Assembly (NCBI GenBank): GCA_964344305.1
Contig: CAYFMT010000003.1
Location: 71,790-135,789 of the forward strand
Length of the DNA: 64,000 bases
Direction of reading: 5' to 3'
Source of the DNA: an uncultured bacterium
GTDB taxonomy: Bacteria; Fidelibacterota; Marinisomatia; Marinisomatales; JABMOV01
The notes under the pieces were generated by a model. That model was not told the origin of the DNA. It saw only the letters and a list, made by a program, of their open reading frames with translations, and did not search any database. This document shows positions 1 through 47,872 of the stretch, in pieces. The stretch's first letter is position 1, and the number at the start of each line of letters is the position of its first letter. A program made the translations under genes and the position numbers.

Positions 1-462
1 TAATGAACTCCCGGATAATCCATACAGTATTTTGTTGGGATTTCCCTGCAAATACACGTGGTTGTTTCCTTGCCATCTCGGTTTTCCCGGTAGAAATGTT
101 TCATCAGACACGAGGAAGGTATAATTCCTGTTTTCCAGACTATAACTCACAAGTGAATTGTATCGGCGATTCAAAAGAAAGTTGGCTGGTTTATACACAA
201 TATGCCTGCTGTCTGAAGACCAGCTGTGACCAAACCCGGAAGCAGGATCACTTGCTATTTCCATAACAGTGTTATTCTCAAGATTAAGAAGGTATAGACC
301 TTTGTAATTCGATGTTGTGAATGTCATGATTTTCATGTCAGGAGATACCTGGGGGTTTATCACTCCTGAAGATGATTGATAGATCAATTCATGAGATGGA
401 ACCTGGGACCAGAGCCCGGACAGTAGTCCAAGAAGAAGAACTTGAAGAATATTATGTTTCAT
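1..462 (-). CDS. Secreted PD40/TolB-like beta-propeller repeat protein; only the N-terminal 154 codons are present because the gene runs off the left edge
   Basis: Absent from the supplied ORF track because it has no in-window stop. Reverse-strand ATG at 462-460 is preceded by GAGG. My hand translation is MKHNILQVLLLGLLSGLWSQ (signal peptide), then VSPDMKIMTFTT..GLYLLNLENNTVMEIAS..HSWSSDSRHIVYK (PD40-like). The frame stays open to base 1. Confidence 0.55.
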   Translation of the reverse strand, partial: MKHNILQVLLLGLLSGLWSQVPSHELIYQSSSGVINPQVSPDMKIMTFTTSNYKGLYLLNLENNTVMEIASDPASGFGHSWSSDSRHIVYKPANFLLNRRYNSLVSYSLENRNYTFLVSDETFLPGKPRWQGNNHVYLQGNPNKILYGLSGSSL

Positions 463-508
463 GGAAGCCTCAAATAACTGAGGAGAAGTTAGATGGTTTA
501 TTGGAGAT

Positions 509-543
509 AAAAAAAGAGTCCCGACACATGGTGTCGGGACTCT
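509..543 (-). terminator. Rho-independent terminator of the 569..2899 gene
   Basis: Perfect inverted repeat AGAGTCCCGACAC (515-527) / GTGTCGGGACTCT (531-543) with a 3-nt loop. On the minus strand it is followed by a T-run (A-run 509-514 on +). It lies 26 nt past the stop codon. Confidence 0.85.
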
Positions 544-568
544 TCATCATACAGATTGTGAGAGTTGG

Positions 569-2899
569 TTATTTAACCAATAACATTCTGTTTGTTACCA
601 TTTGCTGTCCATCTGTCAATGTGTAGATGTACATACCACTGGCAAGCTGACCTGCATGGAAGTCAACATTGTGTCTTCCGATGGTGAGGTTTTCATTTAC
701 CAGGGTGGTAACCTGACGTCCAGTAATATCATAAACCGTCAATGTAACATGGCTATCTTTGTACAGTTCGAATTCGATAGTCGTTGTTGGGTTAAACGGA
801 TTTGGATAGTTCTGGGCCAGACTGAATGCACGGAGAATCTGTGGATCTTCCGGAGTTACACTGGCAGGTGCATACATGAATTTCGTGATTCGATTTCCAT
901 CAAAATCTGAAACGTATGCTGTCATGCCATCTGTGGAGAAGGCAATACCACGAGGAGCTCTGATGGTGTCACCCATGGCAGTGGTTCCAGCTGTGAAATC
1001 ACCTGTTGGTGTACCAATGGTACCAACAATCTGATGATTTGCGCCTGGATCCAACTCATACCAACCGGTGAAATCGCCATCGGCTACATCCCAGTATGTT
1101 CCTACCCATACGGTGCTGTCAAGACCCCAGTCAAGACTCTGTCCCCACATCACTTCATTGTAAAGAATATCCTTCAGCATGAATTCGCCTTCTGGACCAT
1201 CTTCACTGTAGTAGTGGAATACACCATTGTTATGGGTTCCACCATAGATACGGGCATGGTACAGGTTCATACCACTATTATCCACGAGTACATTTCGGGA
1301 AATGGCTGTGTTTGTACCATCATTGATCAGATTTACAAGATCTGGTGAATCTGCTGCTGCACCTGTGTAATCACTTGGCAGTCCCAATGATGCATCAAAT
1401 ACCCAAATTGGGTTTCCGCCTGGTACAACCTGTGTTACAAACATGTAGCCGTCTGCTGACATGGATGCTTCTGTGATAGATCCGGGGAAATCATACAATG
1501 CGCCTAAACCTTCACCGGTCTGGGCATTGATCTGCCATACATCATTGTAAGCAGAATACAGGATGTTCCCGTTGTTATCCAGAGACATTCCACGGCATCC
1601 GTTCCACATGGTGTCCACACGGGAACCAACGGTTACCATCTGGATCGGTGAAAATGATGCTTGGGATCCATCCGGCTCATAACAGTAGATGGGCTTGATC
1701 GGAATGGTGTCATTCGGCAATCCAAGGGTATCTGTATACCCATAGTAGCCTACCCATACTCGACCGTTGTTATCCACAACAACTGAATGAGGGTTTGGAC
1801 CTAATGCAAAATCACTGTCATAGGACCAATCGGACATGGTGGGTGCATCCTGTAAAGGAGCTCCGGCAAATCCAGTACCGTCATCCATGAATTTTGCAAT
1901 CCTGTTACCGTCAAAGTCAGCAACATAAGCCATGGTGCTGTCAAGGGAGAAGGCAATACCACGAGGAGCTCTGATGGTGTCACCCATGGCAGTGGTTCCA
2001 GCTGTGAAATCACCTGTTGGTGTACCAATGGTACCAACAATCTGATGATTTGCGCCTGGATCCAACTCATACCAACCGGTGAAATCGCCATCGGCTACAT
2101 CCCAGTATGTTCCTACCCATACGGTGCTGTCAAGACCCCAGTCAAGACTCTGTCCCCACATCACTTCATTGTAAAGAATATCCTTCAGCATGAATTCGCC
2201 TTCTGGACCATCTTCACTGTAGTAGTGGAATACACCATTGTTATGGGTTCCACCATAGATACGGGCATGGTACAGGTTCATACCACTATTATCCACGAGT
2301 ACATTTCGGGAAATGGCTGTGTTTGTACCATCATTGATCAGATTTACAAGATCTGGTGAATCTGCTGCTGCACCTGTGTAATCACTTGGCAGTCCCAATG
2401 ATGCATCAAATACCCAAATTGGGTTTCCGCCTGGTACAACCTGTGTTACAAACATGTAGCCGTCTGCTGACATGGATGCTTCTGTGATAGATCCGGGGAA
2501 ATCATACAATGCGCCTAAACCTTCACCGGTCTGGGCATTGATCTGCCATACATCATTGTAAGCAGAATACAGGATGTTCCCGTTGTTATCCAGAGACATT
2601 CCACGGCATCCGTTCCACATGGTGTCCACACGGGAACCAACGGTTACCATCTGGATCGGTGAAAATGATGCTTGGGATCCATCCGGCTCATAACAGTAGA
2701 TGGGCTTGATCGGAATGGTGTCATTCGGCAATCCAAGGGTATCTGTATACCCATAGTAGCCTACCCATACTCGACCGTTGTTATCCACAACAACTGAATG
2801 AGGGTTTGGACCTAATGCAAAATCACTGTCATACATCCACTCGCCGTAGAGAGCTGTGGCTGCCATGACAATCATTGCAACTATTAACAATCTCTTCAT
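569..2899 (-). CDS. T9SS-sorted secreted protein with two tandem NHL-like beta-propeller modules
   Basis: 776-aa ORF. Signal peptide MKRLLIVAMIVMAATALYG. NHL-like blades (DNNGRVWVG, DNNGNILYS, PRGIAFS..AYVADFDGNRIAKF) occur twice. The C-terminus NYPNPFNPTTTIEF...VYDITGRQV...SGMYIYTL...MLLVK is a type-A Por/T9SS sorting domain. GGAGG lies 5 nt upstream of the ATG. Confidence 0.85.
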   Translation of the reverse strand: MKRLLIVAMIVMAATALYGEWMYDSDFALGPNPHSVVVDNNGRVWVGYYGYTDTLGLPNDTIPIKPIYCYEPDGSQASFSPIQMVTVGSRVDTMWNGCRGMSLDNNGNILYSAYNDVWQINAQTGEGLGALYDFPGSITEASMSADGYMFVTQVVPGGNPIWVFDASLGLPSDYTGAAADSPDLVNLINDGTNTAISRNVLVDNSGMNLYHARIYGGTHNNGVFHYYSEDGPEGEFMLKDILYNEVMWGQSLDWGLDSTVWVGTYWDVADGDFTGWYELDPGANHQIVGTIGTPTGDFTAGTTAMGDTIRAPRGIAFSLDSTMAYVADFDGNRIAKFMDDGTGFAGAPLQDAPTMSDWSYDSDFALGPNPHSVVVDNNGRVWVGYYGYTDTLGLPNDTIPIKPIYCYEPDGSQASFSPIQMVTVGSRVDTMWNGCRGMSLDNNGNILYSAYNDVWQINAQTGEGLGALYDFPGSITEASMSADGYMFVTQVVPGGNPIWVFDASLGLPSDYTGAAADSPDLVNLINDGTNTAISRNVLVDNSGMNLYHARIYGGTHNNGVFHYYSEDGPEGEFMLKDILYNEVMWGQSLDWGLDSTVWVGTYWDVADGDFTGWYELDPGANHQIVGTIGTPTGDFTAGTTAMGDTIRAPRGIAFSTDGMTAYVSDFDGNRITKFMYAPASVTPEDPQILRAFSLAQNYPNPFNPTTTIEFELYKDSHVTLTVYDITGRQVTTLVNENLTIGRHNVDFHAGQLASGMYIYTLTDGQQMVTNRMLLVK
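935..2833. repeat. In-frame tandem direct repeat: 935-1822 is identical to 1946-2833 (888 bp, offset 1011 bp = 337 codons)
   Basis: Line-by-line comparison at offset 1011 shows identity breaking at 934/1945 and at 1823/2834. Antisense track ORFs 1034..1348 and 2045..2359 have identical translations. The 296-aa segment YDSDFALGPNPHS...RAPRGIAFS appears twice in the protein. Confidence 0.9.
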
Positions 2900-2990
2900 T
2901 TGTCCTCCATTTAAGGGGTTGTTATTTCCTAGGAAATTATGTCTTGAATAATAGGAGTTTCGATTTAATTATTCAATGCATAATTCTGTC

Positions 2991-5105
2991 TTATCGTATT
3001 ACGATAAACTTTCTAAAGGCTGAATCTCCTTTTGCAAATATTATTTCGTTGGTCTCCTCATCTACAATGTCCTCCATCACTTCAAAATAGGCAATGTAAA
3101 CCCCGGATACGACTACCTGTCGATACATGGTGGTTGAGTTCCATGCCTGGTCCCCGCTACCATCTGTATGTTCAATTTCGTCGATGAGATCACCACGTTC
3201 CGTAAAAATCTTAATGATGCATTTCCCCGGGATATCGTAAAACATGATTTTATCCGATTCACCAAGAAACTGCATTTTATTGTTCGATATGTGGTAAGGA
3301 TTTGGTACAACGCGAATTTGATCCAGGGATGTTCCCTGCTGTCTTTTTAAAAAGGCCGGTTTATTTGTCTTGGTGTAGAATCGAGAACTGTGCAAGGGTC
3401 CTGAAGGATTTGTTTCACCGGTAGTATTTCCACTTCCATCAGTCACGGAGACAATGTAATAATAGTATGAAAAACCGCGAATAGCTGACTCATCTGCGAA
3501 TTCGTAAATACCTGCTGGACCAGAATACAGGAGTTCATGAACCGTATCGGGTTTGGCCACAGCACGGTAAATCTCATAGCCTTCAAAATTCGGATCAGAT
3601 TCGGAAGGGCTTGCAATCCAGGACAGGAAAATCTTATCACCACCAGACTCTACATTAAATACCGGAGGAGGCATGGGCGGTTGTGGAATATTGAACCCGG
3701 AATCATAATTCCGTTTTGCGCGACTGAATGTGAGAAGGATTGAATCTTTTCCTGTATAAACCCATGAATTCTTGAATTCATCTGCATTGGATGTGGTACC
3801 ACCACCCGGAAGTGTATATGAACCGGAAGCATTGTTGTAGGTTTCCCCAACCCATTCGCACATTTGCCTGGAGAGCCCGTTAATACCTTCTGCCTCCACA
3901 ATGGTGATACTCTCTCCGTGGGCCAAATCAAATGGACCATACGTCATCATCACATTGGTCCCTCCTTCATCATTGTGTACCGTTGATGGATCAATACCAG
4001 GATATGAATCATAGGCACCATGGATTTCATCCATTCGTGTGCTTCCACCCTTGTCGCTTCCTCCATACGGATTTCCACTTAACATGGAATATAACCGAGT
4101 CATGTTCAGAGCATCTGTTGGTTGAATGTTTCCCACGGATGGGTATGTGTCACCTGCATGCCATCCAAGGAATACAGGTTGCATGGCATCATCGCTGGTG
4201 TCAATGGGACTTGAATCCACATGAATAGTTACAGACCCGATATGATGAGGCGATGTCAATCGACCGGAACCAGACAGGATTGGCGCCCCAACATTATCAA
4301 AGGCATTGGACGGATTTTGTCCCAACCAGCTGAACCCGCATCGGAGCCACTCAAGTATCCCGGATGACTCAGTGATTACATCATTCTGGTGGAGTGAATA
4401 ATCTTCTCCACGTCTGGTGACCCACATGTGCTTTCCCCAGGATGCTGGACCACCGGCATACCATGAGGCTTCCCGGCTGCCACTATAGCGGGTTCCCCAT
4501 CCTATTCGTACGCCTTTTAATGAATCATTCAACTCAATATCCTTATCCCAATCCGTGTTTCCAGTATTGGTAAAGGTAAAGACCTTGATGAAGTAATTGT
4601 CGTGGTACTGTTGTGAAAATGCATATACCGTACGATTCATGGTCAATCCCATGGATGTATTGACAATATTCACTACTTTTCTATCTGAAGGAATACTGGG
4701 ATCCACCTCATCAATATCACCGAAATACACACTGGAAATATTGGAACCATCAACATAGACAGATGGTGGCTCAAATTTCGCGATCTGTTTTAACTCCATT
4801 GGGAACATACTGAGTCCAACATAACTCAGGGCATAATACAACCCGTAATTCTCCCAGGAATTACCTTTATCATCGGTGAAATCTTCACAAGCAATCCAGG
4901 ATCGCTTAATAACGGCATTATCCTGAAACGAATAATCTGCCGGCCAGCGCATACCTTCATAGTACGTGTTGTTCCAGGCACGTTCAGATCCCCAGGCAGA
5001 AATATGGCTCTGGAGTGAGCCTACACGGATATACCGCTTGTCTGTTTCATTGACCTGGGCAAATGATATCCCTGTAATAATAGTTAATAGTAAAATCTTC
5101 TTCAT
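2991..5105 (-). CDS. Secreted ~700-aa protein of unknown function with FN3-like domain and divergent T9SS-CTD-like tail (partner 1 of the adjacent TonB-dependent receptor)
   Basis: 704-aa ORF with signal peptide MKKILLLTIITGISFAQ. Conserved block YAFSQQYHDNYFIKVFTFTNTG is shared with the paralog at 11023..13095. FN3-like segment (FLSWIASPSESDPNFEGYEIYRA...YYYYIVSV). Tail is VVPNPY...IKIFTERGDLI...SGVYIAYFEV...KFIVIR. The start overlaps the upstream stop (TAATG at 5103-5107). Confidence 0.8.
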   Translation of the reverse strand: MKKILLLTIITGISFAQVNETDKRYIRVGSLQSHISAWGSERAWNNTYYEGMRWPADYSFQDNAVIKRSWIACEDFTDDKGNSWENYGLYYALSYVGLSMFPMELKQIAKFEPPSVYVDGSNISSVYFGDIDEVDPSIPSDRKVVNIVNTSMGLTMNRTVYAFSQQYHDNYFIKVFTFTNTGNTDWDKDIELNDSLKGVRIGWGTRYSGSREASWYAGGPASWGKHMWVTRRGEDYSLHQNDVITESSGILEWLRCGFSWLGQNPSNAFDNVGAPILSGSGRLTSPHHIGSVTIHVDSSPIDTSDDAMQPVFLGWHAGDTYPSVGNIQPTDALNMTRLYSMLSGNPYGGSDKGGSTRMDEIHGAYDSYPGIDPSTVHNDEGGTNVMMTYGPFDLAHGESITIVEAEGINGLSRQMCEWVGETYNNASGSYTLPGGGTTSNADEFKNSWVYTGKDSILLTFSRAKRNYDSGFNIPQPPMPPPVFNVESGGDKIFLSWIASPSESDPNFEGYEIYRAVAKPDTVHELLYSGPAGIYEFADESAIRGFSYYYYIVSVTDGSGNTTGETNPSGPLHSSRFYTKTNKPAFLKRQQGTSLDQIRVVPNPYHISNNKMQFLGESDKIMFYDIPGKCIIKIFTERGDLIDEIEHTDGSGDQAWNSTTMYRQVVVSGVYIAYFEVMEDIVDEETNEIIFAKGDSAFRKFIVIR

Positions 5106-8100
5106 TAGAACTCTACCGTAAAACCAAACACGATATTTCTAGGGTTCAGAAATGTCACTGATCTCAGATTTGGCATATCTATATACGCATTTGTGTCGAG
5201 TATTTCCTGCTCTTCATCTGTTAAGTTATCGGGATCCACCGGGTCAAAGGCTCTGTAGGGAATATCATCCTCACGATATTTGCCCACTCGATCCGATCCC
5301 TTTTGAGATCCCTCCTCCCAATCAAAGCGAAGCGATTCCATATAAGCCAGGTAATCATAATTATCTGAGAAGCCAGCAGAATTGAGGTATTTATTATTGG
5401 TAACATTGGATATGTCCACGTATACCCTGAATCTGGATTTTTGAATCTCAAATGTCCGTGCAAGACGGAAGTCCAGATACCACTCATCTTTCCATTGAAC
5501 ATCATCCACAATGCCGGGTCTCTGATAAGGATTGTATGTATCATAACGCCCTGTCTCGTAATAGAAAATGTTGCTGAATACCCAGTTCTCTGCCGGCCTG
5601 ATACCAAATATTCTTGGACCAAATGAGTTCGGTGTCGTAAAGTTCATTACTGCATTTACATGGGGCTGGTAATCATGCCGAATGAGCTTTCGATTAACAA
5701 TATCCGATTCACGCTGAAGATTGGGGTCTTCGTAATAATTTGTAAAACCAAAATACCCTGACGTCTTTGATATATAGGTGAAATTGACGAAACCAGACAG
5801 AAAATCACCATGGACTTTTTCCAGGGTGAATTCAAAACCTCTGATATCCTCATAATTGTTGTTCGCTGCCTGGTTGTACTTCACAGAATTATTCAGATTC
5901 TGGTAGGTTATCCAGCCAATCTGGCCTGAAACATCTTTATAATATGCCACAAGGTTTATCAAATAGTCGTCATAAAATACCTGGGAATATCCAAGCTCGT
6001 ATGAAATGGTTTTCTCATACCTCAGGTTTGGGTTCCCAAGATTGGTAACGATACCATTTGATTCACGCTGGATGCCAAATCTGTACTGAGTACCCGGTTC
6101 GGAATAAAAATGTCCATAATTAAAGAACAATTTGGATACATCTGTCACTGGGAATGAGACACCAAGCCTTGGATGGAGTGAAAACTGTAGCTCTGATTCT
6201 TCCGTCTGGACTGAGTCTTCGATATCGTGACCCAATCCCTGACTCAGGTTTTTGTCATAAGGGTCCAGTGTATAAACAACAGTATTGGAATTGGATACCT
6301 CTCCACGCAACCCAATATTTGCAACAAATCCTTCGTACTCCATCTTATCCTGTGCATAAAGGGATAGTCGAAATGGCTGTACATTATACACCAGCGCACG
6401 ATTCCAGGTGGACATTCCAGGATTGCTGGCAAATGAATACACATCCAGGTTATTCTGGACGTACTCGAACCCGGTCTTGACCTGGTTTCGATTGTTCAGC
6501 TGATCGGCATAATCTGCTTTGATGATGAAACGTGAGTCCCTGGATTTATCCCTGCCAATATTCATCCATCCACCGATATTCATTCCATCAATGCCGGTCA
6601 CGCCATATCCCCAGTAACCGAATGGAGCCTCATCTACAAAATATCCATTGAATAATTCATGGGATTTTGCTGTATCCCGCAACGCGGTCTGGTACGTTTT
6701 GTAATAGGTTTTGCTCACCTGTGTCAGAATTTCGAAATACCGAGTTGAGCTGAGCATATGGGTGTATTTCATTCCATAGCCGGACATGAATATGGTGGTA
6801 GGTGAATAGTATCCGGGCATATAAATGATGCTGTTCCCACTGGAACTGTTAAGCAGGTTGGCTACAGACTGATCTGACTGCAACACATATCCTGTTGGAG
6901 TTGTGGTCCAGTTGTAGGGTGAAACCGAATGGGTTTCACCATAATTCCCAAGGATCATTAAATCAGCATTCTCGCTAATGTCCATATTCAACTTTAACCG
7001 TGTAGTCCAGCTGTTGTATCTGTCTTTGGAGAGAGGAAAAATATACATGGATTTTTCTGAATAATGAGTCAGATAAAACCTTGGGTTAAGTGCTTCAGGT
7101 CCGGGGATCGGTCCACCTATGGCAATATCATAGGTTCGGTCAGGTTCAGTGATATCCCCTTTCCGTCGATGTTCCCAGATGAATAACCGTTGTGCCTGCT
7201 CGGGAGAAAGGTCATTGTCCGGGTCAGCATCACCGAGTGTAGTTTCTGACACCACATTCCACCCTTCAAATTGTGGGTATTGGGCTTCAGTGTAATCATC
7301 CCAGACACCATTTTCCGTACCCGTCCAGCAAACGGCTGTATCCAGATATGGTCTCAAGAAATAGGAATCAGGATCAAAGACGGAGGGGCCAAAATGTTTG
7401 GGTCCTGCAGGTCTGTACTGTACAGCCATGGACCCGTGAAATCGATCCGGTCTACCTTCCTTGTTAACAATATTGATGATTCCAGAACGAATATTTCCAT
7501 ATTCTGCATTGAACCCACTGGATATAACCTGGATCTCTGATACACCCAGCAGCGATGTTGTGGTTACAGGAGAAAAACTTCTGGAGGTGTTTTGGAGAAA
7601 CCCATCCACATATACACCTGTCTGGGTAGAAGAACTGCCACGGATGGATAACCCATTCACACCGGCCTGCAAACCAATCACCTGATTGATATGATTTACA
7701 GGGATTTTTTCAATGACATCATCGGAAATATTGATTTTGCTTGAGGATACATCCGTTTCCACATAAGATCGTTCAGCGGTGACTGTCACTTCTGCCAGAC
7801 CAAGGGTCTCAAGCTGAAGCTGTCGATTGATGGTGGTTGTTTGATCGATATAGACAGGAACATCCTGGACAATAACATTTGTATACCCAATCATCTGGAT
7901 ATTCAGTGTGTATTCGCCCGGCGGGATATTCAATATGACAAAATGTCCGTTTGCATCCGTAACAGACCCGAGCTGGGTCTCGGAAAGGTAGATATTTACT
8001 CCTGGTAGTGGCTCTCCATTCTTATCGTCAGTGATGGTTCCGCCAATTTTACCCGTAATTCCAGCAAAGGTGACGGTCACCATCAAAACCAAAATAGTGC

Positions 8101-8119
8101 TTATTTTGGTTTTCACCAT
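5105..8119 (-). CDS. TonB-dependent outer-membrane receptor with N-terminal CarboxypepD_reg-like domain (TBDR 1)
   Basis: CarboxypepD_reg-like GKIGGTITDDKNGEPLPGVNIYL..ANGHFVILNIPPGEYTL. Plug-like IGLQAGVNGLSIRGSSSTQTGVYVDG. Long barrel ending in an aromatic residue (FGFTVEF). I moved the start from track position 8176 to ATG 8119 (MVKTKISTILVLMV, signal-like), 10 nt after the upstream stop. Confidence 0.85.
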   Translation of the reverse strand: MVKTKISTILVLMVTVTFAGITGKIGGTITDDKNGEPLPGVNIYLSETQLGSVTDANGHFVILNIPPGEYTLNIQMIGYTNVIVQDVPVYIDQTTTINRQLQLETLGLAEVTVTAERSYVETDVSSSKINISDDVIEKIPVNHINQVIGLQAGVNGLSIRGSSSTQTGVYVDGFLQNTSRSFSPVTTTSLLGVSEIQVISSGFNAEYGNIRSGIINIVNKEGRPDRFHGSMAVQYRPAGPKHFGPSVFDPDSYFLRPYLDTAVCWTGTENGVWDDYTEAQYPQFEGWNVVSETTLGDADPDNDLSPEQAQRLFIWEHRRKGDITEPDRTYDIAIGGPIPGPEALNPRFYLTHYSEKSMYIFPLSKDRYNSWTTRLKLNMDISENADLMILGNYGETHSVSPYNWTTTPTGYVLQSDQSVANLLNSSSGNSIIYMPGYYSPTTIFMSGYGMKYTHMLSSTRYFEILTQVSKTYYKTYQTALRDTAKSHELFNGYFVDEAPFGYWGYGVTGIDGMNIGGWMNIGRDKSRDSRFIIKADYADQLNNRNQVKTGFEYVQNNLDVYSFASNPGMSTWNRALVYNVQPFRLSLYAQDKMEYEGFVANIGLRGEVSNSNTVVYTLDPYDKNLSQGLGHDIEDSVQTEESELQFSLHPRLGVSFPVTDVSKLFFNYGHFYSEPGTQYRFGIQRESNGIVTNLGNPNLRYEKTISYELGYSQVFYDDYLINLVAYYKDVSGQIGWITYQNLNNSVKYNQAANNNYEDIRGFEFTLEKVHGDFLSGFVNFTYISKTSGYFGFTNYYEDPNLQRESDIVNRKLIRHDYQPHVNAVMNFTTPNSFGPRIFGIRPAENWVFSNIFYYETGRYDTYNPYQRPGIVDDVQWKDEWYLDFRLARTFEIQKSRFRVYVDISNVTNNKYLNSAGFSDNYDYLAYMESLRFDWEEGSQKGSDRVGKYREDDIPYRAFDPVDPDNLTDEEQEILDTNAYIDMPNLRSVTFLNPRNIVFGFTVEF

Positions 8120-8129
8120 AATGGCGACT

Positions 8130-9431
8130 CTAGAGTGAACGCCCGTGGTAAGGAGCACCCAAACGATCCATATCAACTCGATAAGGACCTTTTACTTCCG
8201 TCGGACTATAATCCCAGGTCACACCATCGGGTGGTACGGCAGAATTCTGGTTGTTTATGTACAGATATTTATCATTACCCCATGACATCTTTGATCCTGG
8301 AGCTTTGAACACTTCCTGGTAAAACGGTTCAGGTGTCGTGTATGGTGCCTGAACTAAATACAGGCCAGGTCCGAGACATTCATAGCAGGATGGATCCATA
8401 TAGTCAACACCAACAAACATATTTCCGCTTGCGTCAAAGGATAGATCCAACGGTTTGGTGGCATTGGCACCCAGGGCATCATCCCAGTCAATAACCAGTT
8501 CAGCAGGTGCCACAGAATCTGCTGAAATTATTTCGCATCTCCAGATACCATTTTGCACTGCCAGGGAATCATCTCCGGAGTAATCGCCTATCATGTAAAC
8601 ATAATCCTCAAACACACGAACAGAGTTAATCAGAATACCGTCCGGGAGAGTATCGGCAGGCACAAAATCAGTTTCACCGCTGTTAATGTCAATTTGATAT
8701 AATACATTTCGTTGGCCTCCTGCGTACAGAATGCCTGTAGAAGCAAAATCAAGGGCGTAGGCTTTTGTTCTATTTGGTAGATCAGCCCAGGCATCTTCTC
8801 TCCCACCTTCTTCAATTGTGTACACACTCTTATGATTCATGGCCATGTAGTATGTATCTGAAGGTCCCAATCGGATGGCAAATGCCTGGAGCCTTGGTGA
8901 GTAGTCACCGAATTCAAGCGAATCCACTTCACCATTGGAGAACACTCTGTATAGTATCTTATTGGATCGATCGGAAATGACCATATTCTCATCATTATCG
9001 ATTTCCAATCCCCAGAGGTTTGTACCCAAAGGATCAAACGTACCCCACTTAATTACAGGCGGGTACAATCCATAATTGTTCCATTCTCCAAATTCATAGG
9101 CACCTATAACGGCTACCTGGATTTTCACACTATCTGCCACAATATTGGGAGCCTTCACTACAAGCTCAGTCGCTGATGCTGACTGGACAATCCCTGTCGT
9201 CCCATTAAAGTAAACCAGGTTCTGATCCACTCTGGTGGAAAAATTCTGTCCCGTTATGGTAACGATTCCAATACCGGAAAAAGCAGAATCAGCAGGGGAC
9301 ACATTAGAAATAGTGGGGTCAGGAAGGACTTCCGGATTTTCTGAATAAATATTGTCTGGATAATCAGGTTCCTCACAAGAGAAGAAGCATCCTGCCAATA
9401 TGATAAGTGTGATGATAGGGATACGATTCAT
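8130..9431 (-). CDS. Lipoprotein with IPT/TIG-like Ig domain followed by beta-propeller-like region
   Basis: The track ORF extends to 9518, but ATG 9431 gives MNRIPIITLIILAGCFFSC (lipobox LAGC) and removes a 77-nt overlap. IPT/TIG-like ISNVSPADSAFSGIGIVTITGQNFS..VYFNG..ATELVVKAP. The remainder is repeat-rich (propeller-like). Confidence 0.75.
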   Translation of the reverse strand: MNRIPIITLIILAGCFFSCEEPDYPDNIYSENPEVLPDPTISNVSPADSAFSGIGIVTITGQNFSTRVDQNLVYFNGTTGIVQSASATELVVKAPNIVADSVKIQVAVIGAYEFGEWNNYGLYPPVIKWGTFDPLGTNLWGLEIDNDENMVISDRSNKILYRVFSNGEVDSLEFGDYSPRLQAFAIRLGPSDTYYMAMNHKSVYTIEEGGREDAWADLPNRTKAYALDFASTGILYAGGQRNVLYQIDINSGETDFVPADTLPDGILINSVRVFEDYVYMIGDYSGDDSLAVQNGIWRCEIISADSVAPAELVIDWDDALGANATKPLDLSFDASGNMFVGVDYMDPSCYECLGPGLYLVQAPYTTPEPFYQEVFKAPGSKMSWGNDKYLYINNQNSAVPPDGVTWDYSPTEVKGPYRVDMDRLGAPYHGRSL

Positions 9432-9441
9432 AAGATGACCT

Positions 9442-10464
9442 CTATAATGTGATTTGGAACGATAATTGTTGAACACTGTCAAAGATACCGAATGGTGTGA
9501 ACGCATAATCAATTCCAATGCCTGTATCTTTTCTTGCTACCTTGAAACCCACACCATATGTGAGACCACGTTCATCATAATTGCCGTAATAGCCTGTACG
9601 CAAATACAGAATACTCAAAGGATTGTATTCAATACCGATATGGGTCCTTTCGGAATAGGATCTGGGATGAAGTGCATCCACGGATAGCATGAATTTTGAA
9701 TCACGGTTCAATGGTGACTTAAGAAATGATAAAAATATAAAATCAGATAAGTCAATGGATGCACCAATGGAGAATGTTAATGGAAGTTGAAATCCTTCTG
9801 TCTGGTATTTGATCTCCTGTGAGAAATTTCTTACCATCATCCCGAAGGAAAAATCGTTCCAACCAGTTTCATAAAGCGTTCCAAAATCATACGCTAATGT
9901 GGATGCCCAGTTACGAATAACCTGATTGGTGGTATCCGTTTCAGGAACAACACTTCTGCCAAGATACTGATACGTGGATTTAATATGACCGCCAATTGAA
10001 AATTTATCTGAAAGTGACCTGGCATATCCCACACCCACAGCCAGAGCTGTTGGCTCAAAGATTTCTGTATCAATGTATCCCGGTTCATTGTTCCACACCA
10101 TGGTTCCCTGAACCTCGCCGTAATCCACTGACTGAACACTCAATGCAAATACGCCGAAATATCCATTATTGGGAGCAAAACCAACGCTTGCGGTGATATG
10201 GTTAATCCCAGCAATGAATTGATTCTGGCTGAAATTGGCAGATAACAGTTGTGTTGATCTGGCCATTCCAGCAGGATTAAAAAATACGGCATTGGATTGA
10301 CCTTTCATGGTGGTCATTGCTTCACCCATCCCCGTTGCTCGAGCATCAGAGGCTACACTCAGGAATTGAAATCCTGTTTGAGCCAGTTTGATATCTTCCG
10401 ACAGACCAATAGACAGGACGCTTAGTAGGATGAACCCATTTTTAAATATCTGTTTAGTGATCAT
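9442..10464 (-). CDS. PorV/PorQ-family-like outer-membrane beta-barrel protein
   Basis: 340 aa with a signal peptide. N-terminal TGFQFLSVASDARATGMGEAMTTM..NAVFFNPAGMA matches the hallmark PorV-family opening (..FL.I..DAR..GMG.A......NPA). Alternating beta-strand pattern; ends in a hydrophobic residue (..SFQITL; not the classic terminal Phe). Confidence 0.6.
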   Translation of the reverse strand: MITKQIFKNGFILLSVLSIGLSEDIKLAQTGFQFLSVASDARATGMGEAMTTMKGQSNAVFFNPAGMARSTQLLSANFSQNQFIAGINHITASVGFAPNNGYFGVFALSVQSVDYGEVQGTMVWNNEPGYIDTEIFEPTALAVGVGYARSLSDKFSIGGHIKSTYQYLGRSVVPETDTTNQVIRNWASTLAYDFGTLYETGWNDFSFGMMVRNFSQEIKYQTEGFQLPLTFSIGASIDLSDFIFLSFLKSPLNRDSKFMLSVDALHPRSYSERTHIGIEYNPLSILYLRTGYYGNYDERGLTYGVGFKVARKDTGIGIDYAFTPFGIFDSVQQLSFQITL

Positions 10465-10467
10465 AGC

Positions 10468-11010
10468 TTATTCCTTATTGAGTATAACCATTGCGAAACC
10501 GGAAGCATTCTCCATGATGAACTCAGTGAGATAATATCCTGTCGTGAGAGTATATTCCTGTCTGAATGCAATGTCTTCACTGCAATCAGCGACAGTTTCC
10601 AGATCCATCGCCATGTTTGTTACATCTGCAATTGTGTTATCGGCATCCCTTAGATTTATCTTCAGGTTTTTATTTGTATAAACAACATAATCACCTGCGG
10701 AAGATATCTGAATCACCGAATAACTGGTATCTGCACTTTTCGATACTTTAATCAACGTATCCGGGTAAAAAAGAATTTCAGCATTCCACGCTATTAAGGA
10801 ATCGATCCTCTCAGCGTTCCCGGTCCCAGAAGCATTGAGTGACAGTGAATCTTCCAATGCCAGTGATGGGAATTGATTAAAGGTGGTATCTGCCATGAAC
10901 ACGCCACACGCAGCACCATCCATTTCAGAAATCTCGTAGTCCTCATCCATATAATTATCACAGGAAATGATTAGCAAAGCTCCAATGATAATGTAACCTA
11001 TGTACTTCAT
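10468..11010 (-). CDS. Small lipoprotein, unknown function
   Basis: 180 aa. Lipobox in MKYIGYIIIGALLIISCDNY. No recognisable motifs. Separated from its neighbours by 3 and 12 nt. Confidence 0.65.
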   Translation of the reverse strand: MKYIGYIIIGALLIISCDNYMDEDYEISEMDGAACGVFMADTTFNQFPSLALEDSLSLNASGTGNAERIDSLIAWNAEILFYPDTLIKVSKSADTSYSVIQISSAGDYVVYTNKNLKINLRDADNTIADVTNMAMDLETVADCSEDIAFRQEYTLTTGYYLTEFIMENASGFAMVILNKE

Positions 11011-11022
11011 ACTTCTTTTCCT

Positions 11023-13095
11023 TTATCGGATAACGATGAATTTTTTAATTCCGGTGGACCCTTTTTCCACAAACTCTCCTGTTTTCCAGTCCGTGAAATC
11101 ATCCAGCACTTCGAAATGGGCAATATATAATCCTGACACCACCACCTGTCTTGAGGATGTAATGCTATTCCAGGCTTCATCGCCGCTTCCATCGGTATGA
11201 TCTATGGTATAAACCAGATCACCTCTTTCGGTAAATATCTTGATTCGGCAGGTGGGTGGAATATCCAGGAACATAATACGGTCAGGACCTCCATCCCCGT
11301 ACTGTAAATCCCTTGCCTTAATATTGTAAGGATTGGGAACAATCCGAATCCTGTCAAGAGTACCGGGTTGACGTTTCAGGAATGCAGGTGTATTTGTTCG
11401 TGTATAAAACAGGCTGCTCTCCATGGGTGTGCCAGGTGAGACATCATTCAATGAACCATCACTTACAGTTGTGACATAGTAATAATAATCAAAGCCACGG
11501 ATAGCCGATCGATCCTCGTAAATGGTTTCTCCAGGACCCAGCTCAGCAATGAGTTCAAATGTTGTATCCGGTACATGAATGGCCCTATACACATTGTACT
11601 CTGCAAAGGATGGATAGCTTTCGGCTGTGGCACTCCATTCAAGAATAATTCTGTCACCTCCTGAAGTAACCTGGAACAGATCAGGCGGAGGTGGTTCATG
11701 GGGCACATTGGATCCAGACTGCCATAGATCGTATGTATTCTGGGCACGTGTAAATGCCTGAAACAGAGAATCCTTTCCGGACATGACCAATTCATTTTTC
11801 TGTGTATTGCTGATAGCACCGCTAAGCCAATCGGCACCAACGGAATAATGTTTATCCCTGGACAAGCCGGCAACAGCCTCCACGGTCACAATGACAATAC
11901 TATCCCCTGGTGCCATATCATATGGACCGTACCCTCTACCCAGTGAATATCCTCCACCGGTGGATCCAAACTCATCTGCGTTGTCATCACCCACTTCCTC
12001 GGCATGACTCAAATTTGGGTGACCGGAACTCATGAGCAGGTATTCATCTGTCATTTTAGCCGCATTCAGGTGATTATTTCCGGAATTATAAGGACCATCT
12101 GAATCAGGGTAAGGAGTGGATGTAGGTTGATTTGGATCGTTGGAATGATCAGAAGGAGATACATCTGCATGAATAGTCATGACACCTACAAATTGTGAAG
12201 CCCCTAGTCGACCATCTCCTCCTGTATTTATATTTGGCGCTCCAATATTATCCCCGGAGCCGCTCCAACCTGAATGCAATCCATGCCAGGCGTAGGATGC
12301 CCTGAATGGAACCGATGTTCCTGCAGCATAATTACCATTTTCACCAATGACTTCATTCATGGTATTCCGACCCCAGGTGGCATTCTGCGGCATCCAGTAA
12401 TACCCGTAAGAACAGGCTTCCTTGGTCATGGCATATCGTTCCTGCCAGAAAATGTACACATCATCCAGCGTTAGACTGTGTGTGCTTCCACTAGTATTAT
12501 ATACACCGGTATTCTTAAACACATATTCCACGATATAATAATTGTCATGATAGGGTTGACTATAGGCATGGACTTTCCGGGTCATTGTGATACCCGTACT
12601 TGTGTTCAATGTGTTAATGATCATTCTGTCACCGGGAATGTTTTCATTCACATCATCTACCAGATCCGTGTAATCCAGTTCTGAGGCAGGCAGACCATCC
12701 ACGTACACTTGAGGGCGGGGATATCGCGCTACCAAACGAAAATCTGTTGGCATGAACTCTGACAATTCATCCAGAACCCTGGGACCTACATGAACCACTT
12801 TGTATTCATATTGTATCCCTGCAACAGGGTCGTTGTAATTCTTTGTCCCTATCCATAAGGCTTTCGCCGCTTTTACATCCTGATACCGAAATTGAGCCGG
12901 CCACATGAGACCATCCTGCTGATCAGGAATGAGATGACGGCGTCCCACTTCTATTTCACAGCCACCGCTGCTGAACCAGTCATGCAGCTGTCCAACAGAT
13001 ATCCAGCGGGATTCATCTGCCATGAGGATTGATGCTACCATGAGGAATAGGAGAATGGATAATCTTTTCATGTTTTTCATTGGGGTTACTTTCAT
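11023..13095 (-). CDS. Secreted ~700-aa protein of unknown function with FN3-like domain and divergent T9SS-CTD-like tail (partner 2; paralog of 2991..5105)
   Basis: 690 aa with signal peptide (MKRLSILLFLMVASILMA). Shared block HAYSQPYHDNYYIVEYVFKNTG. FN3-like (ILEWSATAESYPSFAEYNVYRA..YYYYVTTV). Tail is IVPNPY...IKIFTERGDLV...SGLYIAHFEV...KFIVIR. ATG lies 8 nt after the TBDR 2 stop. Confidence 0.8.
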   Translation of the reverse strand: MKVTPMKNMKRLSILLFLMVASILMADESRWISVGQLHDWFSSGGCEIEVGRRHLIPDQQDGLMWPAQFRYQDVKAAKALWIGTKNYNDPVAGIQYEYKVVHVGPRVLDELSEFMPTDFRLVARYPRPQVYVDGLPASELDYTDLVDDVNENIPGDRMIINTLNTSTGITMTRKVHAYSQPYHDNYYIVEYVFKNTGVYNTSGSTHSLTLDDVYIFWQERYAMTKEACSYGYYWMPQNATWGRNTMNEVIGENGNYAAGTSVPFRASYAWHGLHSGWSGSGDNIGAPNINTGGDGRLGASQFVGVMTIHADVSPSDHSNDPNQPTSTPYPDSDGPYNSGNNHLNAAKMTDEYLLMSSGHPNLSHAEEVGDDNADEFGSTGGGYSLGRGYGPYDMAPGDSIVIVTVEAVAGLSRDKHYSVGADWLSGAISNTQKNELVMSGKDSLFQAFTRAQNTYDLWQSGSNVPHEPPPPDLFQVTSGGDRIILEWSATAESYPSFAEYNVYRAIHVPDTTFELIAELGPGETIYEDRSAIRGFDYYYYVTTVSDGSLNDVSPGTPMESSLFYTRTNTPAFLKRQPGTLDRIRIVPNPYNIKARDLQYGDGGPDRIMFLDIPPTCRIKIFTERGDLVYTIDHTDGSGDEAWNSITSSRQVVVSGLYIAHFEVLDDFTDWKTGEFVEKGSTGIKKFIVIR

Positions 13096-13103
13096 GATAG
13101 ACT

Positions 13104-16100
13104 CTAAAAATTGTACGTGAAGTTGATTCCGAAGAAAATATCCCTGGGATACAGGAAAGTAAAGTATGTCTGATTTGGCATGTCAATATATGCTTTAGTT
13201 TCCAGCACTTCATCAACAAAAGAATCTTTCGCTTCTACCCAGGTCCCATTTGAATACTGGTAGTACGTCTCTTCGGTTTGATCCCAGTAAAGTGCTCGTT
13301 CATTTGGTGAACTGAGGTTCACAACATTGGGGACAGATTCTATGGGTTGAAATGCCACATCTTCATCACGAACATCGCCCGGTTGATCTTCTCCAGGAAT
13401 ATTACCGTACCCTAGATCATCTCCCTTGGAAGCTGGAAGATGTAATGATTGCATATAGAAATCATAATCATAGCTGTCTTCAAATGATTCTCTGGAAAAC
13501 TGTTTGAGGTTGAGCACGTTGTTCACTTCAGCAAAAAGCTTGACCGAGAAATTCTTCAATCTCAATACACGCGATACCTTCAAGTCCAATCCATAGGAAT
13601 CTTTCCACTGAAGATTGTACTGAATTCCACGGATATTATTTGGGTTGTAGGTGAACCAGGACCCACTTGTCCAACGACCAATGAAGTTTGCATTCCACTC
13701 TGCCAGTGGACGGAATCCGGCAATCTGAGGTCCAAAGTCTGATGGGGTAAAGAATGTGACATAGCTTTTTGCTCTTGGAATGGGCAATGGCTTGGCTTGA
13801 TAGGAATTATTCTTTTCATAATCCGCTTGATCGCTTGGATTCTGGTAGACTCGACCCAAATCAAAATACCCTGATGTAGAAACGCGGTACTCGTAATTCA
13901 CCATACCTGTAAACCAGTCACCAAATCTCTTACTCAATTCCACTTCAAATCCGCGAATATCCTCATACAGATTATTCGTCATGACGTAAGAATTGATCTT
14001 GCCGTCTGAGCTGATGATCCGTGTCCAGTCCTGCTCATTAGATACATCTTTATAATAGGCTGATAGATGCAGCAGGTACATATCCGAAAAAGCTCTGTCA
14101 AAACCAAGTTCATATGAAATGGTCTGAGCAGGATCAAGGCTTGGGTTTCCAAGATAGGAAATGGCGCCTACGCTGTTACGTTGTATACGATACGCTGCTT
14201 CTGATGTTGGAGATTGATTGTAGTGTCCATAATTAAAATACAATTTTGATACATCTGTTAAAGGATGTGATATAGCCAGACGAGGACTCAAAGTTGTAAC
14301 GGGATCCGCTTTCTTTGCATAGTCGGAATTCCACACATCATCCTCATCATAATAATAGAAATCCTTGTCAAAATTCTCGAATGTGAACCACTTTCCACTT
14401 GGATTGTAATATTCACCATTCAACCCAAGAATGGCTACCAGTCCTCGGAATTCTATTTTGTCCTGGATATAAGTATTCAATCGATTCGGATTCACCGAAA
14501 ATTCAGACCATCTATTACCTTCGGGCAGGACTTTATTGATTGACCCAAATTTCATGTCGATATTGTAAGAAATGAATTCAAATCCAGCCTTGATCTGATT
14601 GTTGGGTGTGATTTGATTTGTATAATCCCCTGCCAAGCTCACTGAAGATACTTCCGTGGAGTCCCTTGCAGTGGAAATGGGGCCACCCAGAGTGATTCCT
14701 CCATCCACGCTTGAGAGGAATTCCTGCTCAAACCCAAATGGTTGCTCATCGAGGGAAAATCCTGGGAATATTTCTGTCAGATCTACTGTATTCCTGAAAC
14801 GTCCCGGACCGGTTCGATAGGAGTTAAACGTTCGTTGAAGCCGAACCTCGTAAAAACTTTTCGAGGTGAGAATATGAGATAGTGTTACCCCGTAAGTGGA
14901 GTTAAAACGTTCCGTTTCAGAATAATAGTCATTGGTAAAAATTCTCCATGGAACCGTAAACCCAGTACGATCCGTAATGCTTGCAACTCCAGATACTGAT
15001 GTGAAATATGAGGTCCCCCCGGTGCGGGAAGCATTGGTAGCCGTTAACCCATTCCATAGTGCGGATACGGATAGTTTCATGTTATCAGAAATATCTGATG
15101 TAAGCTTCAACACATTGCCATAGGAATTCAAACCATCTGTTGAAAGCGGAAACAGGTATTGAGTGGATTCCTGGATTCGGGAATAATAGAATCGAAGATT
15201 ACCCAACATGGGACCGATAACAGGAATAGGACCGCCAAACCCAAAATCCATATTGATATCAGGTTTATGGATATTCCCATCCTTTCGGTATTGCCATTCG
15301 AAAATTCGTTTTGCAGCCGCTGGTGTTAAATCGTTGGTTGGATCATCATCTGACAACGTAGCCTGCGAGATAGCTATCCACCCATCGAAAGAGGTGAATT
15401 GTCGTTCATCGTATTCATCCCAGTTTGCGTTGGATGAACCATACCAGGCAGTAGAATCACTTAAATAAGGATATAGCCAGAATGAATTGGCACTGTAAAC
15501 GGATTCTCCAAAATGTTTCGCTGCAGGTGGGCTGTATTTATAGGTGAATGTACCAGAATACCTATCTGGATCCCCTTCTTTTGCCACCACATTGATAATT
15601 CCACCACGTACATTGCTGTATTCAGCATTAAACCCACCGGTTTGTACAGATACCTCCTGAATGGAGCTCAAGGGAATCCCTGTTACTGGTGCATCATTTC
15701 GTGCATCCCTGAGGGCAACACCATCCAGCATGAGCATGGTTTGATCAGAACCGCTTCCGCGAATACCAAGAGAAGATGTGATCCCTGCTTTCAACCCAAC
15801 TACCTGGCCCAGACTTGAGACTGGCAATTCCTCAATTTCATCTCCCGTAACACTGAGTTGACTTGCAGCAACATCCACTTTGATGACTCTATTTTGTGCA
15901 ATGACTTCAACACCTTCACCTTCAAGAATCTCTGTTTCAAGTGGCACGTCAATTGAGGTGGTTAAATCGATCTCAACACGGACTTCTTTTACGGTTGTAC
16001 GCTTGTAACCGATCATGGATACCGTGAGGTCATAATCACCGGGAGGAACATTTAAAATGGTATAATATCCTTCTATATCCGTAGCCGTACCCAAATACGT

Positions 16101-16259
16101 ATCTGTTACAACGATATTTACACCTGCCAGACCTTCACCGGTTTGTGCATCTGTAATTCGTCCCGAAATTTTTCCGGTAGTACCGGCCAGAAGTATGGAT
16201 GAAAGAAGTAAAAAGTAAGCGAAAAACGAAATTCTATTTTTTGTCATAGGACATTCCAT
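13104..16259 (-). CDS. TonB-dependent outer-membrane receptor with N-terminal CarboxypepD_reg-like domain (TBDR 2; paralog of 5105..8119)
   Basis: 1051 aa. GKISGRITDAQTGEGLAGVNIVV..EGYYTILNVPPGDYDL. Plug-like VGLKAGITSSLGIRGSGSDQTMLMLDG. C-terminal FGINFTYNF. Alternative start at ATG 16247 (MTKNRISFF). Confidence 0.85.
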   Translation of the reverse strand: MECPMTKNRISFFAYFLLLSSILLAGTTGKISGRITDAQTGEGLAGVNIVVTDTYLGTATDIEGYYTILNVPPGDYDLTVSMIGYKRTTVKEVRVEIDLTTSIDVPLETEILEGEGVEVIAQNRVIKVDVAASQLSVTGDEIEELPVSSLGQVVGLKAGITSSLGIRGSGSDQTMLMLDGVALRDARNDAPVTGIPLSSIQEVSVQTGGFNAEYSNVRGGIINVVAKEGDPDRYSGTFTYKYSPPAAKHFGESVYSANSFWLYPYLSDSTAWYGSSNANWDEYDERQFTSFDGWIAISQATLSDDDPTNDLTPAAAKRIFEWQYRKDGNIHKPDINMDFGFGGPIPVIGPMLGNLRFYYSRIQESTQYLFPLSTDGLNSYGNVLKLTSDISDNMKLSVSALWNGLTATNASRTGGTSYFTSVSGVASITDRTGFTVPWRIFTNDYYSETERFNSTYGVTLSHILTSKSFYEVRLQRTFNSYRTGPGRFRNTVDLTEIFPGFSLDEQPFGFEQEFLSSVDGGITLGGPISTARDSTEVSSVSLAGDYTNQITPNNQIKAGFEFISYNIDMKFGSINKVLPEGNRWSEFSVNPNRLNTYIQDKIEFRGLVAILGLNGEYYNPSGKWFTFENFDKDFYYYDEDDVWNSDYAKKADPVTTLSPRLAISHPLTDVSKLYFNYGHYNQSPTSEAAYRIQRNSVGAISYLGNPSLDPAQTISYELGFDRAFSDMYLLHLSAYYKDVSNEQDWTRIISSDGKINSYVMTNNLYEDIRGFEVELSKRFGDWFTGMVNYEYRVSTSGYFDLGRVYQNPSDQADYEKNNSYQAKPLPIPRAKSYVTFFTPSDFGPQIAGFRPLAEWNANFIGRWTSGSWFTYNPNNIRGIQYNLQWKDSYGLDLKVSRVLRLKNFSVKLFAEVNNVLNLKQFSRESFEDSYDYDFYMQSLHLPASKGDDLGYGNIPGEDQPGDVRDEDVAFQPIESVPNVVNLSSPNERALYWDQTEETYYQYSNGTWVEAKDSFVDEVLETKAYIDMPNQTYFTFLYPRDIFFGINFTYNF

Positions 16260-31904: not shown

Positions 31905-32016
31905 CTTCACTCTCCTTGTCCGACGATTAAATGTGGAAAAACTTACCGGACTATCCGATTTGGGATTGTGATAATAGTCACTGTAAATCTGAGAGTATGG
32001 TTTTGTTTGATCTAGA

Positions 32017-39395: not shown

Positions 39396-39528
39396 ATCAA
39401 TCTAGACCTTACTTGGATGAAATCTAGTAAGAGTTTTTCCCATTCTCAACAGATTGAACACTTGTTTTCTATGTGGATTCTTGGAAGTGGGAACGGATAC
39501 TATAATAAAAACCTTCCTATATTTTCAC

Positions 39529-44136: not shown

Positions 44137-44141
44137 ATCAG

Positions 44142-47663: not shown

Positions 47664-47872
47664 GGACTCCCTCCACAACTATGTCTATTTGTAAAACCTT
47701 TGGTTTTCTGTAAAACCTTCTGAAATAATGAAGGCATTTTACCAGTATAATCGCTCTTAAGCAATAAATGAAAGTAATCATATTCTAGTCTAAATCCAGC
47801 AAAAAAATAAAGATCATACATAGCACTATAAAACTATGACCTAACGCACAAGATCACGGGATCACATGGACC

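Follow-up and report, generated by a model that had tools for sequence, protein, structure and literature searches.

RecA-dependent gene conversion keeps duplicated bacterial genes alike, with tufA/tufB in Salmonella and the rRNA operons as examples. [quoted passage not shown] 2021, PMC8201768). The locus described here probably shows a known kind of evolution: two propeller domains of a single predicted T9SS cargo gene that are identical over 888 bp of DNA, lying in the 64,000-nucleotide stretch of uncultured Fidelibacterota (Marinimicrobia) DNA that we analysed (hereafter, the window).

The repeat is contained within a single 776-aa open reading frame on the minus strand (569-2899), whose product is identical to the NCBI database protein P0112. 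Its domains run in the order predicted signal peptide, NHL-type beta-propeller, 22-aa linker, propeller again and T9SS C-terminal sorting domain (CTD). In the direction of transcription, the features of the gene are as follows:

2904..2908, minus strand: ribosome-binding site GGAGG, lying 4 nt before the ATG, from reading the sequence.
569..2899, minus strand: complete gene, 776 aa (open reading frame with SGL, NHL, Por_Secre_tail and TIGR04183 matches).
2843..2899, minus strand: predicted signal peptide, aa 1-19, MKRLLIVAMIVMAATALYG (hydrophobic N-terminus, modelled helix at residues 2-15).
1946..2833, minus strand: repeat copy A, propeller module 1 core, aa 23-318 (888/888 against copy B).
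1889..1945, minus strand: 3' tail of module 1 (aa 319-337), unconverted, comprising the closing two strands of the last blade; its identity with the tail of module 2 is about 63-69%.
1823..1888, minus strand: inter-propeller linker, aa 338-359, MDDGTGFAGAPLQDAPTMSDWS, with no counterpart elsewhere in the gene.
935..1822, minus strand: repeat copy B, propeller module 2 core, aa 360-655 (888/888 against copy A).
878..934, minus strand: 3' tail of module 2 (aa 656-674), likewise unconverted, from comparison with the module 1 tail.
572..808, minus strand: T9SS type-A C-terminal sorting domain, aa 698-776 (PF18962 at residues 698-771; TIGR04183; modelled beta-sandwich).
513..545, minus strand: 24 nt past the stop codon, intrinsic-terminator-like hairpin whose 15 bp stem includes 8 GC pairs, with a T-run behind it.

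Direct comparison of window positions 935-1822 and 1946-2833 gave 888 identical bases out of 888. The offset of 1011 bp corresponds to 337 codons, placing the two copies in frame, and the 888-bp repeat is the sole exact run of 12 bases or more at this offset. Past 1823, copy-to-copy identity falls to background (about 25-30%). On the other side, beyond 935/1946, it declines via a partly similar stretch in which 870-934 and 1881-1945, encoding LDSTMAYVADFDGNRIAKFM and TDGMTAYVSDFDGNRITKFM respectively, share 41 of 65 bases (63%). The copies are separated by a 123-bp spacer (1823-1945), whose 1823-1888 part is without a counterpart on either side. In the translation, a 296-aa segment (YDSDF...GIAFS) is present twice in the 776-aa product, so that 296 of the approximately 316 residues of each module are identical. 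An initial sequence-only reading had described a repeat lying in frame inside a propeller gene for T9SS cargo, with an identical core, a 296-aa segment occurring twice and homologous but diverged edges of ~65 bp. That description proved right to the base, and the exact alignment gave 0 mismatches, with none of the scattered substitutions through the core that the reading had named as counting against it. The antisense open reading frames 1034-1348 and 2045-2359, which it had noted as identical, do both encode the same 104 aa; we rejected them as genes, as they are mirror products of the repeat. Chance cannot account for an exact repeat of 888 bp, and no other long repeats were found within the 64-kb window. 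A mobile element or insertion was also rejected: inverted repeats and a transposase are absent, and the unit is in frame and forms a homologous domain.

Both sequence and fold identify the repeated unit as a six-bladed beta-propeller of the NHL/SGL type. Pfam matches to SGL (41.7 bits, cutoff 26.3) and NHL (37.5 bits, cutoff 20) exceed the curated thresholds, PDB profile matches to the Pizza6 and PknD NHL propellers reach E values down to 4e-16, and an AF2 model of the one-module form (pLDDT 86) displays all-beta blades in a propeller fold. In this model an N-terminal strand (residues 20-29) adjoins the last blade, a long low-confidence insertion occupies residues 170-182, and the CTD forms a beta-sandwich at residues about 368-437. 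The module 1 tail contains modelled strands at 323-328 and 333-340. A model of the full-length two-propeller protein reached pLDDT 63 and pTM 0.47 and, given its shallow alignment of eight sequences, is unusable for inter-propeller geometry. At the extreme C-terminus, where type-A T9SS cargo carries its sorting domain, the protein matches both Por_Secre_tail (PF18962, 40.4 bits, cutoff 27, residues 698-771 of 776) and TIGR04183 (41.3 bits, cutoff 23), and the hydrophobic N-terminus and its modelled helix suggest a signal peptide. Pfam detects no domains in the 776-aa protein besides the two propellers and the CTD. The window holds several more CTD-bearing proteins, together with a PorV-like open reading frame at 9442-10464 that scores just under its cutoff (26.2 bits against 27). 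The protein is probably secreted by the type IX system and attached to the surface, where it may bind a ligand or exert a lactonase/lyase-like activity beside a SusC-like transporter. A Foldseek search of the one-module model against the PDB matched only generic propellers and gave no functional assignment; no catalytic or ligand residues could be assigned.

Counting modules in orthologues, as the sequence-only reading had proposed, places the two-propeller form in an evolutionary context. A two-propeller gene is present at the same locus in at least eight other Fidelibacterota lineages (61-76% amino-acid identity), and the shared neighbourhood comprises a TIG protein, a SusC-like outer membrane protein, a ~700-aa unknown protein, the two-module gene itself, a Tricorn-like protein and Amidase_3. 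The module count in all these related lineages is exactly two, the module endpoints are the same throughout, and the linker is homologous in every two-module lineage (21-22 aa, pattern xDGxxxxxxPxQxxPxxxxW). More distant relatives contain a single propeller at the same locus, e.g. P0007 (46% identity, same synteny). Exact intragenic repeats of 848-963 bp occur in five further lineages, represented by six further contigs: 957 bp in L003/L018 and L012, 963 bp in L004/L015, 884 bp in L011, 848 bp in L016 and 850 bp in L014. Three lineages contain diverged modules, at 86% (L005/L013), 79% (L017) and 92% (L020) identity.

These data show that the duplication is old, and recombination has probably re-homogenised its copies in many related lineages, i.e. 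the modules probably undergo concerted evolution. In a neighbour-joining tree of module DNA, the first and second modules (m1 and m2) from any one genome pair as sisters in 8/8 species-level lineages (bootstrap 72-100%), and module identity is 79-100% within a genome versus 62-74% between lineages. Substitutions appear in both copies at once: in the assembler-reported copies of L012 and L018 (91% alike, dS 0.42), 84/84 core differences are found in both modules, as are 4/4 fixed core differences in the assembler-reported copies of L011 and L016 (99% alike). The 29 tail differences between L011 and L016 are instead positional, and the m1 and m2 tails must therefore be older than the split between these two lineages. 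Similarly, L013 and L014 have a positional tail signature in common (DGLTA in m1, DGQTA in m2), despite which the L014 core is homogenised; the duplication thus predates their split (dS about 0.7). Together with synteny, endpoints and linker, these signatures place the duplication before speciation. The 3' ends of the identical tracts differ among lineages, and in some the 3' edge of the repeat escapes homogenisation. Where the modules have diverged, m1 versus m2 dN/dS is 0.05-0.06, and this strong purifying selection on both copies indicates that both propellers are functional.

The history that we propose begins with a single in-frame tandem duplication in the ancestor of this Fidelibacterota clade. 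The ~1-kb halves would then have been homogenised repeatedly within each genome by homologous recombination between them, whether by non-reciprocal gene conversion or by successive unequal exchanges between sister chromosomes, so that copies stay identical or nearly so within a genome and diverge freely between lineages. In the window, the last homogenised tract would span 888 bp, starting at the 5' limit of the homology and reaching codon 318, with the final 57-65 bp of each module, at the repeat edge, having escaped and stayed diverged. Conversion may have lapsed in the lineages whose modules share 79-92% identity. The same high identity would make RecA-type deletion to one module easy. Very recent gene conversion or unequal crossing-over had been one alternative raised from the sequence; the comparative data support it for the homogenisation, which is recent and recurrent, and date the duplication itself further back. 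A very recent, lineage-specific tandem duplication without gene conversion would also leave zero substitutions over 888 bp, but we consider it highly improbable. Duplication of a 1011-bp unit would leave all 1011 bases identical, whereas only 888 are, the remaining 123 bp being a spacer without an identical counterpart, and a simple tandem duplication was rejected on these grounds. Furthermore, the tails are homologous yet only 63-69% identical, and the same architecture and linker recur in eight other lineages at divergence beyond synonymous saturation; at least nine independent events with the same endpoints would be required.

Short-read assembly bears on both the number of modules and the exactness of their identity. 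Over 12.8 kb, MEGAHIT contigs from at least three samples of project PRJEB17505, which includes runs ERR2281800, ERR2281803 and ERR2281804, match the window at 100.000% identity, and they contain one module. A literature search for this project found no paper. In the three samples shown (L001, L002 and L021, MEGAHIT k127) the contig corresponds to the window minus exactly one 1011-bp unit, the rest being 100% identical; one-module MEGAHIT contigs total four to five. Depending on the assembler, the protein obtained from one population is thus 439 aa or 776 aa long, and short-read metagenome protein catalogues will consequently misreport domain number and inter-domain identity for such genes. 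The one-module contigs reflect collapse of the repeat or else a deletion allele that is real, possibly the product of RecA-type deletion, and are ambiguous as first evidence for the copy-number variation predicted from the sequence; the two-module form may not be the dominant genotype in the PRJEB17505 samples. An assembly expansion, in which the genome carries one module and the second copy arises from an assembler loop edge of a rare variant or close strain, would explain these contigs. It would also fit database contigs of 179,261 and 180,128 nt, which suggest two assemblies of the same data, and the general expectation that, barring a loop edge of low depth, an exact repeat of 888 bp should interrupt the contig of a unitig assembler. 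Nonetheless, we judge such an expansion unlikely. The spacer is real in-frame coding sequence, with a linker homologous in eight other lineages and a tail that forms a propeller strand, and it must lie between two copies of the strain's own repeat. The linker sequence can only have originated in reads, so the sample does contain a two-module allele; even under an expansion this sequence would be a real allele, merely not the major one. In addition, all related lineages possess two modules, and the commoner short-read error is the collapse of exact repeats. The assembly artefact that the sequence-only reading had considered therefore fails as an expansion from nothing, and retains its force for exactness and copy number. 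A chimera with another species was rejected, as the nearest other lineage (73-74% DNA identity) is too distant to share k-mers at both repeat ends. Scans of JGI metagenomes by protein alignment and with a 31-nt linker probe returned no match, the population being absent from that collection. A 92-aa junction peptide likewise found no match among the cluster representatives searched, here the one-module form, and this result is hence uninformative.

With respect to exactness, all exact-repeat orthologue contigs with a traceable source are short-read SPAdes assemblies (NODE_ names). The SPAdes MAGs with 848-963-bp repeats are GCA_964491015.1, GCA_046861395.1, JBHHTW01, CAYTPW01 and CAZJWP01. In metaSPAdes, SNP bubbles are removed and a simple loop is walked through, and copies about 97-99.9% alike would be printed as 100%. 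No lineages with module identity of 93-99.9% were seen, which fits an ascertainment effect as well as biology, and the assembler may account for some of the perfect identity. The copies might therefore be only near-identical in the cell (e.g. 97-99.5%), with concerted evolution real and less complete than it appears, a possibility that we take seriously without favouring it. In L016 the extra differences between m1 and m2 are confined to the roughly 40 nt next to the diverged tail, a region in which closed bubbles are impossible, and L020, the sole contig from neither SPAdes nor MEGAHIT, has modules at 92% identity in which the longest exact patch measures 71 nt. Set against this, 0 mismatches are found in all six lineages, and the MEGAHIT repeat copy is identical too, though MEGAHIT also merges bubbles. 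Less than perfect identity would leave the main conclusion of concerted evolution unchanged.

If the identity holds true on single molecules, the gene would provide a clean natural case of long-term concerted evolution inside one bacterial gene, affecting a complete 1-kb globular domain. At least six lineages replicate the homogenisation and three have escaped it. For uncultured marine or anoxic bacteria, the family could thus serve to estimate how fast conversion proceeds, how long its tracts are and at what divergence copies escape. We can also envisage, though we rather doubt, that the identity is maintained as useful, providing a recombination switch among one-, two- and perhaps three-propeller forms that is reversible in the population, with the one-module contigs representing a real coexisting short form. 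In that case, forms of a T9SS surface protein working with a SusC-like transporter would be switchable, and persistence of the identity past synonymous saturation would be the sign of a selected and long-lived evolvability trait whose target is an entire globular domain.

Among described proteins, the module resembles the NHL-repeat six-bladed propellers (the PknD sensor domain, the designed Pizza6 and the SGL/lactonase superfamily) in profile, Pfam matches and modelled fold. PorZ of Porphyromonas gingivalis (PDB 5m11) has the same order of propeller, propeller and CTD, and ranked third in the Foldseek search of the one-module model (TM-scores 0.41/0.27, 14% identity). Its propellers, however, are seven-bladed and mutually unlike, and most homologues of the two-propeller gene carry one propeller. 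A PorZ-like T9SS component was rejected, the similarity being no better than to WD40 or Pizza propellers, and nothing indicates orthology to PorZ or a role in the secretion machinery.

As in concerted evolution of the tufA/tufB type, the copies are near-identical within a genome while orthologues diverge, tract ends are sharp, and copies escape past a divergence threshold. Unlike tufA and tufB, the propeller copies share a single reading frame, each making up half of it and only 123 bp from the other, which also makes deletion to one possible, and the edge of the repeat escapes conversion. In common with Periscope Proteins, the gene encodes a protein of probable cell-surface location with a folded domain repeated in tandem at very high DNA identity, in this case in just two copies. 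Several differences separate the two systems. The propeller unit is about 316 aa (about 1 kb) compared with 80-130 aa for a Periscope Ig-like stalk domain; no rod or stalk projecting a separate distal domain was detected by Pfam or in the model, the globular propeller repeat being the sole functional domain. The two-copy state is conserved across lineages, whereas repeat number varies widely in Periscope Proteins, and the host is an uncultured member of the Fidelibacterota that probably exports the protein through the T9SS, unlike the Periscope Proteins listed above. Overall, identical adjacent domains break the usual rule of neighbour-domain divergence in both cases, and the locus would extend this Periscope exception to propellers and T9SS cargo.

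Comparing the window with itself shows no difference between the two copies of the repeat, 935-1822 and 1946-2833, at any of their 888 positions. Both lie within a single minus-strand open reading frame. The sequence-only reading had described an in-frame tandem duplication inside a T9SS cargo gene, and that description proves real and correct. The core contains no mismatches, identity between the offset copies drops to background past 1823, and the low-coordinate flank (870-934 versus 1881-1945) is homologous yet diverged, with 41 of 65 positions identical. At the 1011-bp offset there is no further exact run of 12 or more bases, the remaining 66 bp of spacer (1823-1888) match neither side, and the rest of the 64-kb window holds no second long repeat. 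Two identical antisense ORFs, also remarked upon in that reading, are by-products of the repeat. The proposed identity as a T9SS cargo propeller gene is upheld by Pfam (SGL and NHL propeller signatures, C-terminal Por_Secre_tail) and NCBIfam (T9SS type-A sorting domain). The gene and its product are organised as follows.

569-2899, minus strand: ORF of 776 aa
5' of the ORF: GGAGG
513-545, 3' of the ORF: strong terminator-like hairpin
aa 1-19: predicted signal peptide
aa 21-337: propeller 1
aa 338-359: linker
aa 358-674: propeller 2
between propeller 2 and the CTD: short spacer
aa 698-776: CTD

A profile of 63 single-module homologues matched the PDB NHL propellers Pizza6 and PknD, and AlphaFold gave a good model for the one-module form (pLDDT 86), with a single beta-propeller and, after it, a beta-sandwich CTD. 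This model also has an N-terminal strand at aa 20-29 and last-blade strands at 312-340. The identical tract (aa 23-318 and 360-655) takes in all of each propeller except the final blade's last two strands. Foldseek searches with the model returned generic propellers only.

The propeller gene lies directly downstream of genes for a SusC-like outer-membrane protein and a 704-aa partner without an assigned family. Two paralogous cassettes of this type, SusC-like protein then ~700-aa partner, occupy 2991-8176 and 11023-16259. Their SusC-like proteins (1023 and 1051 aa) carry CarboxypepD_reg and Plug domains. The partners matched no Pfam or NCBIfam family, are 40% identical to each other over their full length (E 7e-148), and may represent an undescribed SusD-replacing family in Fidelibacterota. 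Between the cassettes, 9442-10464 encodes a PorV-like outer-membrane protein (26.2 bits, just below the Pfam cutoff of 27). Several further T9SS-CTD proteins are present (including 28326-31910 and 44322-47678), as is a 1560-aa ORF (39454-44136) fusing an AMP-binding, acyl-CoA synthetase-like region to a C-terminal GNAT acetyltransferase domain, immediately followed by the window's sole tRNA, tRNA-Leu (44141-44224).

Comparing module counts among orthologues, as the earlier reading had suggested, gives two in the Fidelibacterota/Marinimicrobia MAG clade and one in most homologues, which are about 430-460 aa long and 31-47% identical. One of the latter, P0007, has the same gene order as the window locus, so a single propeller is likely to be ancestral. 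Its locus (L023, ENA ERZ24794672 NODE_15869, 7001-8311; 46% identity; order TIG, SusC-like, 716-aa partner) marks the pre-duplication state. Within the clade, the two-propeller form occupies the same locus (61-76% amino-acid identity to the window protein) with linkers of equal length and common pattern (xDGxxxxxxPxQxxPxxxxW). The duplication was therefore a single event that preceded the divergence of these lineages, and is itself ancient.

Similarity of the two modules in orthologues on other database contigs

L003 (= L018): 957 bp exact
L012: 957 bp exact
L004 (= L015): 963 bp exact
L011: 884 bp exact
L016: 848 bp exact
L014: 850 bp exact
L005 (= L013): 86% identical
L017: 79% identical
L020: 92% identical, second module frameshifted

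A tree built from module DNA pairs the two modules of each genome as sisters in every species-level lineage (bootstrap 72-100), and between lineages module identity is just 62-74%. L012 and L018 are 91% alike (dS 0.42), and all 84 of their core substitutions occur in both copies; the same holds for all four core differences between L011 and L016 (99% alike). The 29 differences in the 3' tails of the latter pair are instead positional, first-module tails matching each other and second-module tails likewise, and L013 and L014 share such a positional signature despite the homogenised core of L014. The identical tract varies between lineages at its 3' end: it takes in the whole module in L003, L004 and L012, and falls 57-110 bp short of this in the window, L011, L016 and L014. 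Where module pairs have diverged, dN/dS between them is about 0.05, and both modules are therefore functional. Taken together, these are textbook marks of an old duplication repeatedly hit by gene conversion or unequal recombination, with escape at the edges and occasionally in full; the recent conversion or unequal crossing-over first proposed is thus supported by sister modules, paired substitutions and variable tract ends. Two frameshifts affect module 2 of L020 (JAADFQ010000204.1, 3001-5337, an FCB-group MAG), module 1 being intact, and reflect either decay of the second copy or an error in assembling a near-repeat.

The other possibility raised, an assembly artefact, stands only in part. 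The window protein is identical to P0112, whose NCBI contig measures 180,128 nt. MEGAHIT contigs L001 (179,261 nt), L002 and L021 (ENA PRJEB17505) match window 1-12,899 at 100.000% identity apart from lacking exactly one 1011-bp unit, so copy number differs between two assemblies of the same population. An assembler could not have invented the spacer, which maintains the reading frame and shows homology to linkers from other lineages; a two-module allele therefore exists, whether or not it is the sole allele. On meeting a repeat of this kind, a unitig assembler would be expected to end the contig and not to bypass the loop, a hint that a one-module allele may really be dominant in the PRJEB17505 samples. 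The short one-module contig L021 (ERZ930069, k127_122792), matching window 762-3622, differs at 3521, 2878, 2877 and 2842, the last turning codon 20 of the propeller gene from GAG to a TAG stop; because three of these are G/C-to-T changes, sequencing error, and not a pseudogenised variant, may be the cause. In another lineage, L019 (RFIZ01000137.1, MEGAHIT k99, 3016 nt) starts at most two codons from the 5' boundary of the repeated module and extends into the CTD, and looks like a repeat-induced contig break.

Every exact-repeat orthologue contig bears a SPAdes NODE_ name. Since metaSPAdes collapses SNP bubbles and traverses simple loops, a reported 100% may represent anything above about 97%. 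None of the lineages compared has a module identity of 93-99.9%, a gap that fits an assembler ascertainment effect and equally a positive feedback in conversion, where copies that are identical go on converting and diverged ones no longer do. The claim of perfect identity is less secure for these reasons; that of concerted evolution is not weakened, as the non-identical lineages and the paired substitutions support it too. A selected copy-number switch of the T9SS propeller seems unlikely. The phenomenon is of a known type; what is added is its replication across many uncultured lineages, together with a demonstration that the choice of assembler alters the reported protein.

Classical bacterial concerted evolution is known from tufA/tufB and rRNA operons, which the window gene resembles, differing in that the process acts inside one reading frame. 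PorZ has the same domain order and nothing more specific in common by Foldseek. The closest known concept is that of the Periscope Proteins, a class of surface proteins (SasG, Rib, Esp and CdrA among them) with tandem domains that are nearly identical and whose DNA identity is held to permit intragenic recombination and length variation (PMC8201768). Unlike these, the window gene encodes no stalk and has only two copies, constant in number across lineages, and we do not count it a member; what it shares with them is identical adjacent domains and a surface location, the latter predicted for the window protein.
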